Source: a virus
Taxonomy: Duplodnaviria > Caudoviricetes
Length of the DNA stretch: 54,940 nucleotides
IMG/VR virus record: IMGVR_UViG_3300010233_000019
Coordinates: 1 to 54,940 of that record
Strand: one strand, 5' to 3'
Shown here: positions 48,147 through 54,939 of the stretch, in pieces
Layout of the letters: every line of letters begins with the position of its first letter
Position numbering within the stretch: the first letter of the stretch is position 1
Notes under the pieces: model-generated
What the model was told of the DNA's origin: nothing
The model's database searches: none
What the model saw: the letters and a program-made list of their open reading frames with translations, nothing else
Made by a program: the position numbers and the translations under genes

Positions 48147-48422
48147 TTAGGTTACTTCTCCTGTGATAAGGCAAACTGTAGTGAGGTGGTCACGAAACCA
48201 CCGTTCCATGCCATACCTGTCGGTTAGACCTGGGACAATGGAGATCATGTGGGCACGATTCTCACGGGTTCGGGGGAATCCCCCACTCCCGGGGCAACTG
48301 AGTTCCAGATGGACATCGGGAGGGTCACAGTAGCAATAATCATCCTCTCCATGACCCCCCATGCAACCTCCTGTGACTTCGAGGGAAATGGACATTTCTA
48401 CATGGTGCTTTGGGCACATCAT
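48147..48422 (-). CDS. hypothetical Cys-rich protein
   Basis: CPKH, CYC motifs. Confidence 0.55.
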   Translation of the reverse strand: MMCPKHHVEMSISLEVTGGCMGGHGEDDYCYCDPPDVHLELSCPGSGGFPRTRENRAHMISIVPGLTDRYGMERWFRDHLTTVCLITGEVT

Positions 48423-48560
48423 CTTTCTTGTACTCCTCGATTGTGGCGTTTAAAGCCTCTTTGCCGACATAGGATTTCACATTCCTGGCATACCCCAATG
48501 TCCTCTTCGTAGAGGCAGATCGAAATGAGTTCCTCCTCGGGGAACTCCCGAAGGCATACT

Positions 48561-48725
48561 TCACATTGGGGGTGCATTTAGGCCTCGTTGGAATTGGGTA
48601 GAACATAGTGGGTGGGATCTGTATTCGCAGATTTGAAGTAGTTCCAGGGCAAGAAGTTTACAAAGATAGTGTCCCCTAAGCACCCAAGGTTGAGTAGGGT
48701 TACATTGATGCCAAATTGTCCACAT
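48561..48725 (-). CDS. W..CK-family microprotein (copy 11)
   Basis: MWTIWH...YLCKLLA. Confidence 0.65.
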   Translation of the reverse strand: MWTIWHQCNPTQPWVLRGHYLCKLLALELLQICEYRSHPLCSTQFQRGLNAPPM

Positions 48726-48892
48726 CAGGATTTTACCCATTCCACGGTGCAACATTCCTGGAGATAATCCAGGTGCTGGTGTTGGTAGACTAGAAGTCTA
48801 ACCTTACATGTATCCGAACCTCGAATTTCTCGGGGAATGATGCTATGCTGATACCGTCTACTGCCTACACAAGAGTACCAAATATTCCACAT
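48725..48892 (-). CDS. W..CK-family microprotein (copy 10)
   Basis: MWNIWY...TCKVRL. Confidence 0.65.
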   Translation of the reverse strand: MWNIWYSCVGSRRYQHSIIPREIRGSDTCKVRLLVYQHQHLDYLQECCTVEWVKS

Positions 48893-49074
48893 CAGCCACG
48901 CTCCAACCAAATCTTACAACACAAAGGGAAGTAGCGAACGCTGTATTCCCACAACTCTTTTTGGGCAAGAAGTTTACACCAAAACGTCTCCTGCACATAT
49001 GGGGTAACATATATATGGTTATTCACTGCTGTGAGGGAGGCATCACAACTGTACCAAAGCTTCCAACATCTCAT
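48892..49074 (-). CDS. W..CK-family microprotein (copy 9)
   Basis: MRCWKLWY...FWCKLLA. Confidence 0.65.
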   Translation of the reverse strand: MRCWKLWYSCDASLTAVNNHIYVTPYVQETFWCKLLAQKELWEYSVRYFPLCCKIWLERG

Positions 49075-49610
49075 AACTCCTCCATCAATCCATACACCAA
49101 AATATGGCTCAAGATGAGATGGCCATCCTCGCTGCGACCCATGTGCATCGCGGGGACAAGGAGGGTGTGATCTGCGAGATCCTTTGCATGCCCCCCATCA
49201 AAGCCAAGAACTGCAAGGGTTTCCATATCCTTCCCTCGTGCTGCGAGAAGGGCAGCGAGGATGTTGGGGGAGTTTCCACTCCCTGAGATCACAATAAGGA
49301 GATCCACAGGACTCCCGTACATCTCGAGTTGCCGAGAGAAGATGTGTTCGTAACCCTCATCGTTACCCAGGGCGGTGATCATGGCCAAGGACGTGAGACT
49401 TTGGGCCTTCACATGACATTGTTTGGTGAGATCCTGGGCAAAGTGATCCGCAAGGGAGGCACTGCCTCCGTTGCCACAGATCCATACCGTGCCACCTCGC
49501 TCTTGGCATTGGGTTAGGAGATCCCAAGCCTTGAGGATCTCCGGTTCGGAGATGGAGGCAAGATTCTTTTGCAAGGAGAGGAGATAGGTCTTGATGTATT
49601 TTGAGGTCAT
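49071..49610 (-). CDS. gmhA: phosphoheptose isomerase (SIS domain)
   Basis: CGNGGSA..A.HF, TALGND.GYEHIFSRQ, ISGSGNSPN, GFDGG, EDGH...H. Confidence 0.88.
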   Translation of the reverse strand: MTSKYIKTYLLSLQKNLASISEPEILKAWDLLTQCQERGGTVWICGNGGSASLADHFAQDLTKQCHVKAQSLTSLAMITALGNDEGYEHIFSRQLEMYGSPVDLLIVISGSGNSPNILAALLAARGKDMETLAVLGFDGGHAKDLADHTLLVPAMHMGRSEDGHLILSHILVYGLMEEL

Positions 49611-49762
49611 AGAGAGGACTCTGAGGGCTTTGGTTGTAGCATCCACATCCTACCAGGAGAGGTCTGGCATAAGTACTTAAGTTGAGAGGTAGCCCAAATC
49701 TTGCATGGATACGATGTCCATCTTAGGAACCTTCCATTCTTGAGGTACACTATTATCCACAT
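49607..49762 (-). CDS. W..CK-family microprotein (copy 8)
   Basis: MWIIVY...YPCKIWA. Confidence 0.65.
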   Translation of the reverse strand: MWIIVYLKNGRFLRWTSYPCKIWATSQLKYLCQTSPGRMWMLQPKPSESSL

Positions 49763-49908
49763 AGGGGTGCTTCGTGTTTGGTGAGTTTCCATGTCAAACG
49801 TGGGTAAACACGTTTGCAAGCCACATAAGCCCCAAGTGCAAAGAGCTTACATTCATACTCTGCCCAGGTTTTAACTACCCCTTCAGAGACCCAAGTGAGT
49901 TTCCACAT
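49753..49908 (-). CDS. W..CK-family microprotein (copy 7, not in ORF track)
   Basis: Manual translation MWKLTWVSEGVVKTWAEYECKLFALGAYVACKRVYPRLTWKLTKHEAPLCG. Confidence 0.65.
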   Translation of the reverse strand: MWKLTWVSEGVVKTWAEYECKLFALGAYVACKRVYPRLTWKLTKHEAPLCG

Positions 49909-50047
49909 AAATTTGAACTATCCAGCCTGTTCCCGGCACGGCTGGTCTCCTGAAGGGGTCTGGCCACCATAGGGTCATAGACCCAGTACGACCAAGATAC
50001 CCAAAGCAGGAAGGATATATTATATGCCCTGCCTTGGCCCCTTCGCG

Positions 50048-50123
50048 TCCTACCCCCACTCCGTCACTGAGTTATGAGGGCACTGCCCACACAGGGGATT
50101 TGAACCCCTGCTGTGAGGTAGAA
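50048..50123 (-). ncRNA. circularly permuted tRNA-like RNA element
   Basis: Order on the minus strand: closing stem, T arm (TTCAAAT loop), acceptor-like stem closed by AGT, TA, D arm, closing stem. Confidence 0.65.
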
Positions 50124-50124
50124 A

Positions 50125-50307
50125 TTAAACTTGCCGAAATCTCACCTCGTATCGGAGGAGGGGATGGTCAGGATTTCTTGCACCGCCCCTCGCGCACCTT
50201 GCAAGTGCAAGGATCTTGCAAGGGAAGGAAATGGCTTCTATATTACCATATGCTCGTAGAGGCTTCATCTCCCCGTAGTCATATGTATTCCACCAAACTT
50301 CCCACAT
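50125..50307 (-). CDS. W..CK-family microprotein (copy 6)
   Basis: MWEVWW...FPCKILA; SD AGGAG. Confidence 0.7.
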   Translation of the reverse strand: MWEVWWNTYDYGEMKPLRAYGNIEAISFPCKILALARCARGGARNPDHPLLRYEVRFRQV

Positions 50308-50324
50308 TTCAGATGTGCTCTCCT

Positions 50325-50782
50325 AGAATTGGCTCCCCAGTACCAAGAGGGTTTCAGAACCCTCCTCGGCTCTATCACATCCCCCGCTGAGGAGCCAGGG
50401 GAAGCGGAGGCATTTCTGCCTCGGTGTGGTGGGGAATTTCACCCGCTGGACTGTGTTGAAGGCTTGGCAGAGCAAGGGCCTTTGCAATCAAACTCTCCCA
50501 AGGAAGACTCCTCTCAAAGGACACACATCCTTTGATTGGGAATGAGCTTTGGTGATTGGTCAGGACCTTTGGTGGCAAACCTAACAGCTACGCCTTTCAC
50601 GCCCACGTTTCTCCGTAAAGCTACAGAGAACAAAGAGGTCATATAGATTTACTCAAAGCAGATCTAGCAAGGCTTGCTAGATGGACTTCAATACATCCGA
50701 TCACTCCTTGGGCAACCGATGCCAAGCTCCAGATATCCTCTGGAGGGGTTTTAAACCCCGTGCAAAAAGGTAAGGCTACCCT
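50325..50782 (-). ncRNA. candidate large structured non-coding RNA
   Basis: About 460 nt without a convincing ORF, with at least 8 closely spaced hairpins. Confidence 0.5.
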
Positions 50783-50950
50783 TTAGGGGCGGGGTTTAAA
50801 GGTGAATTCCCAAGTGGGGTACCAATATTGCCATTTGGCTATCTGGATTGGGAAACGGAGTTTGCAATGCACATCATCGTTCTCGGGATGGGGCATCCAA
50901 TCTCTGTAAAGAGTCCCCTCTCGGCGTCGGGACCAGAGTTGCCAGGTCAT
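50783..50950 (-). CDS. W..CK-family microprotein (copy 5, not in ORF track)
   Basis: Manual translation MTWQLWSRRREGTLYRDWMPHPENDDVHCKLRFPIQIAKWQYWYPTWEFTFKPRP. Confidence 0.65.
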   Translation of the reverse strand: MTWQLWSRRREGTLYRDWMPHPENDDVHCKLRFPIQIAKWQYWYPTWEFTFKPRP

Positions 50951-51435
50951 AACATATACCCCAGATGTCCATCCTTGTAAGCGTCAAAGACCTCATTGGG
51001 GTCATCCTCAAAGGATTTGGCCACCATCTCAAGGGTGGCTTGAGTGGGTTTGATGACCTCGGGTAAAGGCCAGAGGAGTTTCTTCCACCCATCAAAGAGG
51101 CGATTGAATTGTGGCCAAAGAACCGGGGTGTGTTGCATCCATCTCCACAGCCTCTCCCCATCACAGAGGTACACATTGTCGCTTTGGGAGAGGAGATTTC
51201 GGATGTGAGCTTCCAGTTCAATGGGGATGTGGTACTTCTCCGGCCAAAGGAGACCTCGGAATTTGTCATCAATGTAAACCCATGTCTGACAGGTCGAGGT
51301 GCGCTTCTCACAGTAGCGGCAGATGATACTTCGCCCATCCTGGGTCTCCGGAGAGGGGAGGAAGTTGAACTCGATCCCACTCGCGGTGATTGTGGAGAAG
51401 CCACAGAGAAGGCAGGTTTTGGAGATGGTACTCAT
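50947..51435 (-). CDS. hypothetical Zn-finger protein
   Basis: CLLC...CRYC. Confidence 0.7.
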   Translation of the reverse strand: MSTISKTCLLCGFSTITASGIEFNFLPSPETQDGRSIICRYCEKRTSTCQTWVYIDDKFRGLLWPEKYHIPIELEAHIRNLLSQSDNVYLCDGERLWRWMQHTPVLWPQFNRLFDGWKKLLWPLPEVIKPTQATLEMVAKSFEDDPNEVFDAYKDGHLGYML

Positions 51436-51620
51436 TAGAGTCGAGCCATGGTCATGGTTCTTGGGGAGGTGATGACCCGAAGATCCTCGGGGGCTGTGCC
51501 AGCTTCGAGGAGATCATTGTATGCCCAGCAAATCTTGAGTTTGCAAAGGGATGTTTGATAGGTATGCCATCTATCACTCCAAACATCCCTATATTGCAAC
51601 ACATATCGAAGTCTTCTCAT
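51435..51620 (-). CDS. W..CK-family microprotein (copy 4)
   Basis: MRRLRYVLQY...WHTYQTSLCKLK. Confidence 0.6.
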   Translation of the reverse strand: MRRLRYVLQYRDVWSDRWHTYQTSLCKLKICWAYNDLLEAGTAPEDLRVITSPRTMTMARL

Positions 51621-51802
51621 CTGGGGACACTTTGAAAGCGGGCTCGGGGATATCGGTCTTGCCACTCCCGTAATACTGCGAGACTTTGGAGTCTACAGGA
51701 GCGGTCGGTGTTTTCGTTATATCGATGGGGGTACTGAGGATTATAAAGTTCCTTCCACTCAGGGGAGAGGTAGTCTTGCTGGAATAGGATTTTCCAAATC
51801 AT
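51617..51802 (-). CDS. W..CK-family microprotein (copy 3)
   Basis: MIWKILF...SCRLQ...YP..RF. Confidence 0.65.
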   Translation of the reverse strand: MIWKILFQQDYLSPEWKELYNPQYPHRYNENTDRSCRLQSLAVLREWQDRYPRARFQSVPR

Positions 51803-51805
51803 TTC

Positions 51806-52582
51806 CTAAGCCTCCTTCTGGGCCCATAAGGTGATTGCCCTCTTGTATGCTATGAGGGTATTCGCATCCTCCACGGACGGGGCGGAGTTTACCTCAAGGA
51901 TGACAAGGGTTCCGTCATCCTTTTCGAGGATGTCGCAAGCTCCATGAGTGTAGCCAAGGGCCCCCACCGCGGACTTGGCAACTTCCTTAAGCCTCTCGGG
52001 TCTTGGCCACTCCCCGTAGTTGAGATGCCACCCATTTCTGCGGCTCCGCACAAGGAGAGGAGAGATCCCAGGTTCTACTTTGACCTTCATCCCCGAGCGG
52101 ATGGCTTTGTCTCCGAAGATATGTTGGCGGTACTCGGCTTTGGAGGATACCACTTGCACCCAGAAGTCTCGTGAGAGCCATCGTTGGGAGAAGTGTTCTC
52201 CTCCGATGCGTTCGGGGGTTCCAGCTAGGATTCGAGGACGTTGGACTCGGTTACCTTTCTTGGTGATGATCCATCTCATCTCGGTTCGGCTTGGACTTGC
52301 GGGGACCCGGGTGAGTCTTTGGAATTCCGGACCCACAATGTCCCGGCCCTGAGTGTGATGGAGCTTACGGCCAAAGACTTCAATGCCATTCCGTACCCAT
52401 GCCTTAGCCACCTCCACATCCGTAGTGAACTCAGGACAAGCAAGTCCCGCAAGGCGAAATGCTTGGAGTTGTTCTAGGCCATTCTTGCCACCTTGGCCCC
52501 AATGGAAGGTAGGTCCGGGGGTGTCTTTGAGGGCTTCCTGCAATGCCCTCGTGGAAGGCCAATCTGGTCCGGTAATTTTCAT
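51806..52582 (-). CDS. ATP-grasp amide ligase (phiEco32-like / RimK-like)
   Basis: EYRQHI, RSRRNGW, AVGALG..GACD, ILEVNSAP. Confidence 0.85.
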   Translation of the reverse strand: MKITGPDWPSTRALQEALKDTPGPTFHWGQGGKNGLEQLQAFRLAGLACPEFTTDVEVAKAWVRNGIEVFGRKLHHTQGRDIVGPEFQRLTRVPASPSRTEMRWIITKKGNRVQRPRILAGTPERIGGEHFSQRWLSRDFWVQVVSSKAEYRQHIFGDKAIRSGMKVKVEPGISPLLVRSRRNGWHLNYGEWPRPERLKEVAKSAVGALGYTHGACDILEKDDGTLVILEVNSAPSVEDANTLIAYKRAITLWAQKEA

Positions 52583-52737
52583 CTAGGGATCCCCCTAAAA
52601 AGAACGATTTTATACTCAAAGTCGGCCACTAGTCCACATCTTTGCTGTGCGAGAAGGCGGCAGGGGTATCTTTCAGATGTGGCAAACCCCCAAGGATAGT
52701 TTGGTCCCATTCGATACATCACTTTCCATCCCCTCAT
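52579..52737 (-). CDS. W..CK-family microprotein (copy 2, not in ORF track)
   Basis: Manual translation MRGWKVMYRMGPNYPWGFATSERYPCRLLAQQRCGLVADFEYKIVLFRGIPR. Confidence 0.65.
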   Translation of the reverse strand: MRGWKVMYRMGPNYPWGFATSERYPCRLLAQQRCGLVADFEYKIVLFRGIPR

Positions 52738-53207
52738 CCCTTCGCCTCTTCCCGTTTCCTCATCACCGCCACATCAAAACATGTCTTGGCCGGGGAGAAG
52801 GAGCGGATTTTGATCTTGAGATGTCCAGGGATCCTGGACATCTTGTTGATCTGCACGGCGAGGTTCTTGAGCTGGGTGGGGACAAAGCGGGGATTCTTGT
52901 ATATCCCTCCCCCACAGATCTTGCAAACCAAGGACGAATCCTTCTTGAAAGGCCAATCCCTATCACACTCCGCGAGGATGTGATGGAAGAAGGCTTGTTT
53001 TTGCTTGTGCCCTCGGAGGGTGATTTGGATGTGTTTGTCTTTGTTGTCAACCATTGATGTGGTCCTTGGGGCGAGGGGTTTGATGGGGATTCCCTTCATG
53101 CCAATCTCCGCTCGATGTTTGTCAAAGCGGCACTGAGGGCACTCCCCATTGTAGGTGTAGATATTCCTGGCCCCACACAGAGCACATGTGATGAGGATAT
53201 CACTCAT
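52734..53207 (-). CDS. hypothetical Zn-finger protein
   Basis: CALC..CPQC and CKIC. Confidence 0.65.
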   Translation of the reverse strand: MSDILITCALCGARNIYTYNGECPQCRFDKHRAEIGMKGIPIKPLAPRTTSMVDNKDKHIQITLRGHKQKQAFFHHILAECDRDWPFKKDSSLVCKICGGGIYKNPRFVPTQLKNLAVQINKMSRIPGHLKIKIRSFSPAKTCFDVAVMRKREEAKG

Positions 53208-53406
53208 CTGGGGTCACTCCTGCGGGGACGATGATATATTCCCATTTTTCAAGATTATAGTTGGTGTACCGTTCGGATATAAGTTCGACCTTGCATGGCC
53301 ATACCCTTCGGCCAGCTTCTGGGGAACCCCAAAGGGGATACCATCTTGGGTATTGAATCTCCCCCCTCCAGGTGGAACGATTGCGAAACCACACCTCCCA
53401 TCCCAT
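53200..53406 (-). CDS. W..CK-family microprotein (copy 1)
   Basis: MGWEVWF...WPCKVE...EYIIVP. Confidence 0.65.
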   Translation of the reverse strand: MGWEVWFRNRSTWRGEIQYPRWYPLWGSPEAGRRVWPCKVELISERYTNYNLEKWEYIIVPAGVTPDE

Positions 53407-53410
53407 AGGG

Positions 53411-53731
53411 TTACCTTTGTTTCTTTCCCATCAAAAGCTCATCCATATCCAGCTCCTCTGGGACCTTTGCCTCAGCTTGGGCACCCTCGGTCATCACGAA
53501 CTTTGCGGATTGCTGGGCACTCTTGGTGAGGGTGTCGCTCATCTTGGCAAGAGTCTCAAGAGTCTGAAGACGCTCCTCGGGCGTAGCAAGCTCCCCGGTG
53601 AGCCTCTCCTTGAGATGCCCGAGTTGATCCTCAATGAGATCTCGGATTTGCTTGTGGAGCTTTAGGGTTTGTTTGAGATCAGTCTCCAAGAGGGAGAATG
53701 GAGTCTCCTTAGTGCCTTGGGGTCGAGCCAT
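53411..53731 (-). CDS. hypothetical coiled-coil protein
   Basis: 106 aa helical ORF with SD. Confidence 0.7.
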   Translation of the reverse strand: MARPQGTKETPFSLLETDLKQTLKLHKQIRDLIEDQLGHLKERLTGELATPEERLQTLETLAKMSDTLTKSAQQSAKFVMTEGAQAEAKVPEELDMDELLMGKKQR

Positions 53732-54649
53732 CTAGTTCACTCCTTCGGAGGTTTCCATCTTGAGAGAATCCAAAAACTCCTGCCATTGCAACTCCAAACA
53801 CGCAGGGCAGACGAGTTCTTTTTTGGTGTCCACCTTTGTGGTCCGGCAGATGTAGCAGATATCCGTGCTCATCCAATACCCAGTACCCACCGGACGAGAC
53901 GATGTGCTATTCCACGGTGGGTATGACCCAACTTCGCCAGAGTTCGAGTAGTCCGGATATAGGGTGACTTTTTTTTTGCTCGCTTCAAAGGGAAGGGTTT
54001 CGATTTTGAGAAGCGTGTCTCTCCCATCTTGGGTGGTGAGTTGATACTTCACAAACTCATCGATTTGCCAATTCGTTTTGATTGGGTTCCCAAGGATCCT
54101 AGCGATCTTACTGAGAGGAGTGTATGTGGAACAGAAAACAAGTTCTCCCCCCTCGAGGGTGGCTACGTGGAGATCTTGGGTTCCAAAGCGACAGAAGTTG
54201 AGTTGATCTTCTTCATACCACGCCAGGGCTCCATAGCCCTCGAGGCCTTCCACACCTTTGCCTTCCGCAAAGTTCGCATAGATATGCATCGAGTCCACTT
54301 CAAACTTGCGATTCCATCGGGTGTTCAGATCTGTGTGGGTCCGGATGATTCCATTGTGAATGCCAATCACCCGTCCACCATCGGCTTTGGGAAACTCGAA
54401 GGGATGTGCATTGTCCAGGAGCTTTGGAGAGCCATGTGAGGCACTTCGGGTGTGGAAGATCCCCCGATGTCCGGACCACTCTGGGGGACACTCAAAGGAA
54501 TCCACAATGGACCCAATGTGTTTGATGATGGTATAGCCATCCGAGGCTCCCCAAGAATCCGTGCCTCTCGCGGACATCTCAATCCCAAGATACGGAAGCA
54601 TTGCCCGAGTTGAAGGGGTGATGCGACTTACCCCAAATATTCCACACAT
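53732..54649 (-). CDS. class II (Ntn) glutamine amidotransferase
   Basis: N-terminal MCGIFG, RGTDSWG, HTRSASHG, NAHPF, HNGII, EVDS. Confidence 0.9.
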   Translation of the reverse strand: MCGIFGVSRITPSTRAMLPYLGIEMSARGTDSWGASDGYTIIKHIGSIVDSFECPPEWSGHRGIFHTRSASHGSPKLLDNAHPFEFPKADGGRVIGIHNGIIRTHTDLNTRWNRKFEVDSMHIYANFAEGKGVEGLEGYGALAWYEEDQLNFCRFGTQDLHVATLEGGELVFCSTYTPLSKIARILGNPIKTNWQIDEFVKYQLTTQDGRDTLLKIETLPFEASKKKVTLYPDYSNSGEVGSYPPWNSTSSRPVGTGYWMSTDICYICRTTKVDTKKELVCPACLELQWQEFLDSLKMETSEGVN

Positions 54650-54681
54650 GTAAGTTAAGTGTCCTTTTGGTTTAGATGGTG

Positions 54682-54939
54682 TTACTGAAGATTCCGAAGA
54701 TACTCCCGCCAATCCCCGGAGGGGATAAGTGGCTCTCCATCTCGATGGGGGAAGGTATATATTTCACACTTCCTGATAACTCCGTGGGTAACATCAAATA
54801 CGGAGGCTGTAAGTCTCCGATAAAGCCGTGGATGTCCCTCGATTTGATCAAGTAAGTGGAGAGTCCCTGGGGTAACTTGGTATATCTCCCCTCGGATGAT
54901 GTTAGTCCCGTCGAGGACAAGACTTACTCCCGGGACTTG
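54682..54939 (-). CDS. gamma-glutamylcyclotransferase (GGCT/AIG2-like), 5' end cut off by the window edge; not in ORF track
   Basis: Manual translation ...PG...IRGEIYQV...LLDQIEGHPRLYRR...IY...IPSGDW. Confidence 0.8.
   Translation of the reverse strand, partial: QVPGVSLVLDGTNIIRGEIYQVTPGTLHLLDQIEGHPRLYRRLTASVFDVTHGVIRKCEIYTFPHRDGEPLIPSGDWREYLRNLQ

Follow-up and report, generated by a model that had tools for sequence, protein, structure and literature searches.

We analyzed a linear virus record of 54,940 bp from IMG/VR (IMGVR_UViG_3300010233_000019), which was taken whole and is called the window here. The record has a CheckV-estimated completeness of ~82% and comes from an uncultivated, tailed phage of ~65 kb. 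The plus-strand block carries portal, virion, and tail-fiber genes, and the minus-strand block (~36.7-54.9 kb) encodes a primase, a family-A polymerase, HNH proteins, phosphoesterases, a Sak4-like annealing protein, and a PD-(D/E)XK-type exonuclease. Within 4.8 kb of this minus-strand block lie eleven ATG-initiated open reading frames (ORFs) of 51-68 aa, designated m1 to m11, which are the subject of this analysis (Table 1). No near relative of the window was found among 50,697 GenBank phage records, and the window polymerase did not exceed 24% identity among the matches listed.

An earlier note on this DNA had described the eleven ORFs as divergent paralogs with an N-terminal [WY]-x-[ILV] strand, a C-[KR]-[LIV] motif, little other identity, and starts or stops that mostly overlap those of their neighbors. 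The sequences bear out this description. All eleven starts it listed, from 53406 down to 48725, were present. The N-terminal motif occurred in 11 of 11, with its first residue at position 2-6, and the Cys motif in 11 of 11, at residue 20-38. A loop of 9-26 aa separates the motifs, and 17-27 aa follow the helix block as a tail. One Trp and one Cys were the sole invariant columns of the MAFFT alignment, the mean column identity of which was 24%. By coordinates, ten of the eleven ORFs overlap a neighboring gene by 1-17 nt, through ATGA or TGATG-type junctions; the sole exception, m6 (50307-50125), sits between two non-coding gaps. The claimed interleaving was also confirmed, as the ORFs alternate with an ATP-grasp gene, an SIS/GmhA-like gene, and two gaps that fold better than shuffled sequences. 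The isoelectric point (pI) was 8.3-10.0 for ten products and neutral for m1 (6.3), and the aromatic content ranged from 11 to 22%.

Table 1. Microprotein ORFs, adjoining genes, and non-coding features of the locus
Feature	Coordinates	Strand	Length	Sequence features	Leave-one-out rank (E)	Position and junctions
m1	53200-53406	minus	68 aa	WEVWF strand; C38-K-V	2 (0.067)	between 106-aa gene and 157-aa Zn-ribbon gene; overlaps start of 157-aa gene by 8 nt
m2	52579-52737	minus	52 aa	WKVMY; C26-R-L	1 (3e-5)	between 157-aa gene and ATP-grasp gene; 4-nt overlap at each end
m3	51617-51802	minus	61 aa	WKILF; C36-R-L	1 (4e-6)	directly downstream of ATP-grasp gene
m4	51435-51620	minus	61 aa	YVLQY; C26-K-L; doubtful member	114 (36)	overlaps m3 stop by 4 nt and start of 162-aa gene by 1 nt
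m5	50783-50950	minus	55 aa	WQLWS; C29-K-L	1 (0.044)	4-nt overlap with stop of 162-aa gene; hairpin across its own stop
m6	50125-50307	minus	60 aa	WEVWW; C30-K-I	1 (0.016)	between the two gaps
m7	49753-49908	minus	51 aa	WKLTW; C20-K-L; short-loop type	1 (0.013)	
m8	49607-49762	minus	51 aa	WIIVY; C20-K-I; short-loop type	2 (0.18)	overlaps m7 end by 10 nt; upstream of SIS/GmhA-like gene
m9	48892-49074	minus	60 aa	WKLWY; C33-K-L	1 (0.007)	first of tandem trio; 4-nt overlap with SIS gene stop
m10	48725-48892	minus	55 aa	WNIWY; C29-K-V	1 (8e-4)	1-nt stop/start overlap on either side
m11	48561-48725	minus	54 aa	WTIWH; C22-K-L	1 (6e-5)	overlaps start of 52-aa Zn-ribbon ORF by 17 nt
ATP-grasp gene	51806-52582		258 aa	PHROG 2599, RimK-like, E 3e-16		
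SIS/GmhA-like gene	49071-49646			Pfam SIS_2, E 2e-18		
ZnR157	52734-53207		157 aa	paired N-terminal CxxC		
ZnR162	50947-51435		162 aa	paired N-terminal CxxC		
ZnR52	48419-48577		52 aa	paired N-terminal CxxC		
Larger gap	50308-50782	minus	475 nt	fold z -3.5		
Inverted repeat	50750-50770, 50780-50800		21-nt arms			straddles m5 stop
Smaller gap	49909-50124		216 nt	fold z -2.5		
Hairpin	50088-50115	minus	10 bp, one bulge	7-nt loop UUCAAAU on GGGG/CCCC stem		9 nt past m6 stop codon

For the significance of the family, we compared the two-motif pattern M.{0,6}[WY].[ILV].{12,40}C[KR][ILV], with no stops, against a six-frame translation of the whole window. The search resulted in 11 matches, all of them the eleven ORFs, with none elsewhere in the window. 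In 100 second-order Markov shuffles of the window, the same pattern matched 0.94 times on average (maximum 4), and in 300 shuffles of the region, 0.06 times (maximum 1). The motif is thus enriched over shuffled controls, with a significance that is overstated because the pattern was written after the sequences had been seen. A second approach, not subject to this circularity, searched the window's 1112 six-frame ORFs with leave-one-out hidden Markov models (HMMs). Eight of the eleven models placed their left-out member at the top of the list and two more placed it second, with E-values between 4e-6 and 0.18 for these ten (Table 1). In pairwise Smith-Waterman comparisons, z exceeded 3 in 14 of 55 pairs and 5 in 9 of 55, the strongest links being m9-m11 (7.3), m7-m8 (6.4), m5-m3 (6.3), and m6-m2 (6.2); ten members formed one connected graph at z >= 3. 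Finally, the disjoint halves m7-m11 and m1, m2, m3, m5, m6 were aligned by hhalign with a probability of 93.8% (E 1.7e-7, 37 columns).

Because the pattern search, the leave-one-out ranks, the pairwise z-scores, and the alignment of halves agree, ten members are solid, and at the sequence level the ORFs are an intragenomic paralogous family, that is, a lineage-specific expansion, with significant similarity among the copies for 10 of 11. The membership of m4 is doubtful, as it relies on the motif, the architecture, and the operon position.

The tandem trio m9-m11 (48561-49074) shares junction sequence, and each of its members contains 4-5 Cys residues. All three have a Cys directly after strand 1, and m9 and m10 also have a CC pair before the last strand. 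Judging from these residues, the trio may be a metal- or disulfide-stabilized subtype of the family.

The conserved residues are encoded by differing synonymous codons. The invariant Cys is TGC in six members and TGT in five, Lys is AAA or AAG, Arg is CGC or AGA, and the aliphatic motif residue is CTT, CTC, ATC, ATT, GTC, or GTT. The copies share DNA-level repeats of just 14-21 nt, located at the motifs. All eleven lie on the coding strand of the minus-strand block and are start/stop-coupled to their neighbors, and several are preceded by Shine-Dalgarno-like sequences, such as AAGGAGG 9 nt upstream of m3. Due to the synonymous codon variation at conserved residues and the start/stop overlaps in 10 of 11, the family is probably translated, with ten, and probably eleven, of the ORFs being protein-coding genes.

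Several observations weigh against this reading of all eleven ORFs. The m4 sequence was ranked 114th in the leave-one-out test (E 36), and its highest pairwise z was 2.1. When codon usage was scored by log-odds, with 25 long genes as the training set, the family averaged about -0.01 per codon. Off-frame decoy ORFs scored lower (-0.16 +/- 0.14, n = 59) and 60-codon pieces of real genes higher (+0.24 +/- 0.12, n = 173); this intermediate position may reflect a composition that is unusually rich in Trp, Cys, Tyr, and Arg. The annotated frame was the best of six in 8 of 11 members, and another frame scored higher in 3 of 11. In addition, the public protein libraries searched contain three of the eleven (m1, m3, and m9), and the other eight are missing. 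Together with the post hoc origin of the pattern, the codon scores and the missing entries would suit chance or untranslated ORFs, or an artifact of composition or nucleic-acid repeats. We regard this explanation as extremely unlikely. It is opposed by the 11 matches against 0.94 expected, by the leave-one-out ranks and the alignment of disjoint halves, and by the codon variation without DNA repeats beyond 14-21 nt; by arithmetic, without these genes about half of a 4.8-kb stretch in a dense operon would be non-coding. The case shows that paralogy inside one genome can validate micro-ORFs that have no orthologs.

The family was submitted to a series of database searches. PHROGs, searched with m1-m10, returned no significant match (a single row, phrog_18605, E 0.046), and Pfam, searched with m1-m9 and m11, none either (a single row, PF21605, E 0.049, 14.2 bits against a cutoff of 27.3). 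A family profile run over 5.8 billion word-indexed proteins recovered the window's own three proteins and nothing more, both at E <= 0.01 and at E <= 10, and a full HMMER scan of 1.84 billion representatives gave the same three. Three of the eleven members were compared by tblastn with the 50,697 GenBank phage records, with nothing at E <= 1. A degenerate two-motif DNA pattern gave 39 single matches in IMG/VR, of which none was HMM-positive (best E 0.14). The family profile found nothing at E <= 1 in eight capsid-related virus records (L007 not included). It found nothing in three ATP-grasp-related virus records, and its matches in a 2.5-Mb metagenome-assembled genome (MAG) were non-significant (best E 0.08; L055 not included). 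In 61 genomes around that MAG, nothing was found at E <= 0.01. True members score 8-23 bits in leave-one-out (the doubtful m4, ~1 bit), and ~35 bits were needed in the HMMER scan, so divergent relatives would have been beyond its detection. Because of these low scores, and because micro-ORFs are often not called as genes, the database blanks are weak evidence. As a family, the microproteins are new to all of the libraries covered; as a general kind, phage genomes are well known to carry orphan small proteins in their variable regions.

For the comparison with related loci, we used the ATP-grasp gene as an anchor. It has 46 homologs outside the window, with up to 63% identity; P0004, P0006, and P0007, at 60-63%, are among the nearest, as are P0011, P0018, and P0019, which are encoded on contigs of 64-65 kb. 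An alignment of 21 of these 46 led to 74 metagenome, 41 viral, and 3 genome loci with flanks. Across the metagenome and viral sets, 115 loci with 20,217 ORFs in 1.16 Mb, the family HMM detected no member (best E 0.8), and it detected none in the three genome loci L169-L171 (best E 0.15). Single-protein scans of viral contigs with the ATP-grasp, SIS, polymerase, and exonuclease proteins gave nothing, nor did the ATP-grasp scan of metagenome contigs or a two-sequence exonuclease alignment run against viral contigs.

Four of the relatives (L054, L055, L128, and L169) were colinear with the window. By tblastn, at least one of them has homologs of the GGCT, GATase, 106-aa, ZnR157, ATP-grasp, ZnR162, SIS, ZnR52, 91-aa, 209-aa, exonuclease, and Sak4 genes, and the only tested neighboring segment without a colinear homolog was a 23-aa filler segment (hyp_46085). 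The same search found 0 of 11 microproteins in the four. The corresponding junctions of the relatives are either closed or taken up by small ORFs outside the family. No m2 separates the ZnR157-like and ATP-grasp genes in L055 and L169, where the two abut or overlap, a 116-aa gene overlaps the ZnR157-like gene without m1 in L055, and unrelated small ORFs fill the stretches from the ZnR162-like gene to SIS and from SIS to the ZnR52-like gene in L169. The 91-aa-like gene lies ~0.75 kb past the ATP-grasp gene in L128 and 3.4 kb past it in the window. A 79-aa ORF of L055 carrying PCKF was considered as a family member and rejected (hhalign probability 1.5%). Since the relatives keep the large genes and have neither the microproteins nor copies of the two gaps, the microproteins, the gaps, and their arrangement are, as far as these alignments reach, lineage-specific and sit in the variable slots of a conserved backbone.

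This comparison bears on the suggestion of the earlier note that the microproteins are substrates of the ligase. In a wider form, they would be substrates or carriers of the neighboring ATP-grasp ligase and amidotransferase, with a modification resembling that of RimK or of ribosomally synthesized and post-translationally modified peptides. The ATP-grasp gene has a member on either side, spaced from it or overlapping it by 3-4 nt, the enzyme matches a RimK-like PHROG, and small ORFs beside an ATP-grasp ligase recall graspetide precursors and RimK acceptors. Graspetide precursors, by definition, travel with their ligase and carry a core of Thr/Ser plus Asp/Glu, or Lys, for cross-linking, and a RimK-type acceptor has a conserved acidic C-terminus to be extended. 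Here, by contrast, ATP-grasp relatives at 39-52% identity keep the GGCT, GATase, and ZnR157-like genes, and the family is missing from them. No two of the eleven C-termini are alike, and only one of them ends in acidic residues; with Trp and Cys as the only invariant residues, no Ser/Thr/Asp/Glu/Lys core is present. The members are also predicted to be folded, unlike leader-plus-core peptides. Synteny, together with the absence of a conserved core or C-terminus, thus disfavors the substrate role, which we consider very improbable.

The same relatives bear on two further explanations. In one, the microproteins are accessory subunits or translational-coupling leaders of the downstream gene (ZnR157, ATP-grasp, ZnR162, SIS, or ZnR52), and m1, m2, m4, m8, and m11 do each end overlapping the start of a larger conserved gene. 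However, relatives have these larger genes with no such partner upstream, no larger gene follows six of the members, and a pure coupling leader would need no conserved protein motif, which leaves this explanation quite improbable. In the other, also decidedly unlikely in our judgment, they are selfish or neutral mini-genes duplicated into junctions without a host-directed role, or an addiction-type module. The copies at many separate junctions that are closed in relatives, the shared junction sequence of m9-m11, and the limitation of the family to one genome in everything searched would suit such an origin. Against it, no flanking repeats or recombinase were found, and these divergent copies all keep their frames, both motifs, and coupled starts, which argues for long-term selection on the protein.

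The fold was modeled by AlphaFold2, with the eleven paralogs as the alignment, for two of the eleven members. The m1 model (predicted local distance difference test 77.4, predicted template modeling score 0.62) has a strand at residues 3-9, a helix at 39-44, and a strand at 55-61; the m2 model (72.5 and 0.47) has a strand at 2-9, a helix at 27-34, and a strand at 41-48. In both models, the invariant Cys (C38 in m1, C26 in m2) directly precedes the sole helix. The order of strand, loop, helix, and strand is thus the same in m1 and m2, which upholds the idea of a shared fold as far as these two members go. Of the family proposed in the earlier note, homology stood for 10 of 11, as did the variable loop and the likeness of the two models; the ORF starting at 51620 was left without statistical support.

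Comparisons with known structures and profiles gave weak matches. Foldseek returned no match at E <= 0.001 in the PDB and BFVD, and a profile search of PDB sequences reached E 0.32 at best, with an unrelated chain. The best Z-scores of an exhaustive VIA-align search were 5.2 for m1 (8g9s_A) and 5.3 for m2 (a topoisomerase III subdomain). By the tool's own statement, Z <8 is common for unrelated pairs (noise level 7-8), so no fold was assigned. The weak-neighbor lists of m1 and m2 overlap in 6k8n_A, 8g9s_A, PurS, the CapRel C-terminus, and a RuBisCO small-subunit-like domain, and we read the models as a generic two-layer alpha+beta arrangement common to m1 and m2, short of a fold assignment. 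In the ESM Atlas, m9 gave no usable feature match, and the matches of m3 scored 0.76, below lead level, with unnamed viral proteins as structural neighbors. A homodimer prediction for m2 (score 0.01, mark 0.42) weighs neither for nor against binding.

The conserved Cys did not conform to either of two familiar classes. The four conserved Cys/His ligands of a Zn ribbon or finger are absent, as there is one invariant Cys and the extra Cys residues are out of register. A thioredoxin-fold CxxC/CxxS motif is likewise lacking, since the +3 residues of the eleven are E, L, Q, K, R, L, F, W, L, R, and L, and Pfam gave no match. A Cys followed by Lys/Arg at a helix N-terminus lowers the thiol pKa in many redox and nucleophilic proteins. 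Because of this arrangement in the models, it is plausible that the helix-capping Cys-[KR] is a reactive thiolate; equally, it could be a packing residue.

Both non-coding gaps fold better than expected (Table 1). For the larger one, 0 of 100 shuffles folded as well, and no family-like ORF was found in any of its frames. The hairpin in the smaller one resembles a tRNA T-arm; ARAGORN detected no tRNA and Rfam gave no match in that region, and the hairpin may act as a processing signal or represent a tRNA-like element. Neither gap had an Rfam match or a copy in any fetched locus.

The earlier note had listed partners of the neighboring RNAs as a possible role. In a wider form of this role, the microproteins would be small nucleic-acid binders whose basic, aromatic beta-sheet surfaces bind RNA or single-stranded DNA, such as the two structured gap transcripts, and act as chaperones or regulators. 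The basic pI of ten members, their aromatic content, the structured gaps, and the T-loop-like hairpin are consistent with this, and the alternating Trp on strand 1 would, in the models, place aromatics on both faces of the sheet. However, no RNA- or DNA-binding family was matched in Pfam or PHROGs, RNA recognition motifs and other nucleic-acid binders appeared at no more than Z 2.3-3, m1 is neutral, and the gaps lack Rfam matches and copies in the fetched relatives. On balance, we judge this role unlikely.

We tentatively favor a different function, akin to the anti-defense/host-takeover panel suggested in the earlier note, and regard it as a real possibility short of an even chance. The microproteins may be free-standing small binders, with one scaffold and many specificities, directed at host or competitor factors in early infection. 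Within this phage lineage, a family of 51-68 aa, mostly basic and aromatic-rich products would have been expanded, each beginning with a Trp/aromatic beta-strand, continuing through a hypervariable loop of 9-26 aa into a single helix, which is capped by the invariant Cys plus Lys/Arg and Leu/Ile/Val, and ending in a second beta-strand. The genes would be co-translated with their neighbors through the overlapping stops and starts. With differing loops on one scaffold, each copy would engage a different factor of the host or of a competing element, with host takeover or anti-defense as the outcome, and the Cys-[KR] pair at the helix N-terminus would serve as a structural anchor or a reactive thiolate.

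The setting is compatible with such a panel of binders. Variable slots between conserved phage early genes are a typical site of anti-defense and host-takeover genes, and anti-CRISPR and other anti-defense loci likewise comprise 50-70 aa proteins without family annotation, in variable slots, absent from syntenic relatives. The best structural neighbor of m1, below the noise level of the tool, is the 70-residue chain 8g9s_A, whose entry deals with how type I-C CRISPR-Cas3 is activated and inactivated. The host-takeover clusters of the Bacillus phage SPO1 type are also dense runs of small, co-directional, packed early-region genes with no assigned fold. T7 Gp2, phi29 p56, PurS, and PaaB, which turn up among the weak structural neighbors of m1, m2, or both, resemble the models in having an antiparallel sheet on one helix in 50-80 residues.

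Other points count against the proposed binders. Typical anti-defense loci mix unrelated families, and eleven paralogs of one family are unlike the mixed, unrelated inhibitors of anti-CRISPR loci. A helix-turn-helix regulator of the Aca type nearby is a hallmark of many such loci, whereas Pfam found only SIS and GATase domains, and no helix-turn-helix regulator, among the ten neighboring proteins scanned in the window. The SPO1 module is not known to be built of paralogs of one scaffold, unlike the 10-11 genes here, which share one predicted fold and the invariant Cys. The structural resemblances are all under the noise level of the tool: 8g9s_A aligned to m1 with Z 5.2 (root-mean-square deviation 2.8, 60 aligned residues) and to m2 with Z 4.0 (49 aligned, 22% identity), AcrIF9 reached Z 2.3, and T7 Gp2 and phi29 p56 appeared in the m2 list only, with Z about 3. 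For T7 Gp2, phi29 p56, PurS, and PaaB, the scores of Z 2.4-4.3, without sequence similarity, indicate a common arrangement and not homology.

A bolder form of the binder proposal, which we consider rather unlikely, is a germline-like binder library, in which a scaffold of ~50 residues, with a conserved core of aromatic strand, helix, and strand, a helix-capping, probably reactive Cys-Lys/Arg, and a hypervariable loop, was copied at least ten times into separate gene junctions. One genome would then carry binders for different host factors, possibly covalent, thiol-based ones. If true, such a library would be a new family and a new logic of phage counter-defense. If the copies bind different targets, nature would have supplied a minimal binder scaffold from which new inhibitors could be drawn. 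The small proteins of phages form a large store of host-manipulating activities, for the most part unannotated, and what is unusual here is the ten- to eleven-fold expansion in 4.8 kb of a ~65-kb phage, at separate junctions, with an invariant helix-capping Cys.

Some further observations concern the genes around the family. The public gene call for the ATP-grasp protein in this record (P0005) is 157 aa, 61% of the 258-aa ORF, and its homologs align across the full 258 aa. The three CxxC proteins ZnR157, ZnR162, and ZnR52 resemble Zn ribbons, and all three, unlike the microproteins, have homologs in relatives. A promoter and terminator scan gave fewer sites than in shuffles. The early-gene backbone at 51806-54939 is colinear in the four distant relatives and comprises a GGCT-like protein, a class-II glutamine amidotransferase, a coiled 106-aa protein, a Zn-ribbon protein of ~110-160 aa, and the RimK-like ATP-grasp protein. 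From its gene content, this GGCT-GATase-ZnR-ATP-grasp backbone looks like a glutamyl- or amide-transfer module.

The best syntenic relative was L169 (63,580 bp), with identities of 44% for ATP-grasp, 45% for the exonuclease, 50% for Sak4, and 34% for SIS. This locus is assigned to a Thaumarchaeota MAG, and its G+C content is 48.7%, compared with 38-45.5% in four other loci of that MAG. The exonuclease was present in only one of 61 genomes related to the MAG, and L169 is probably a mis-binned or infecting virus.

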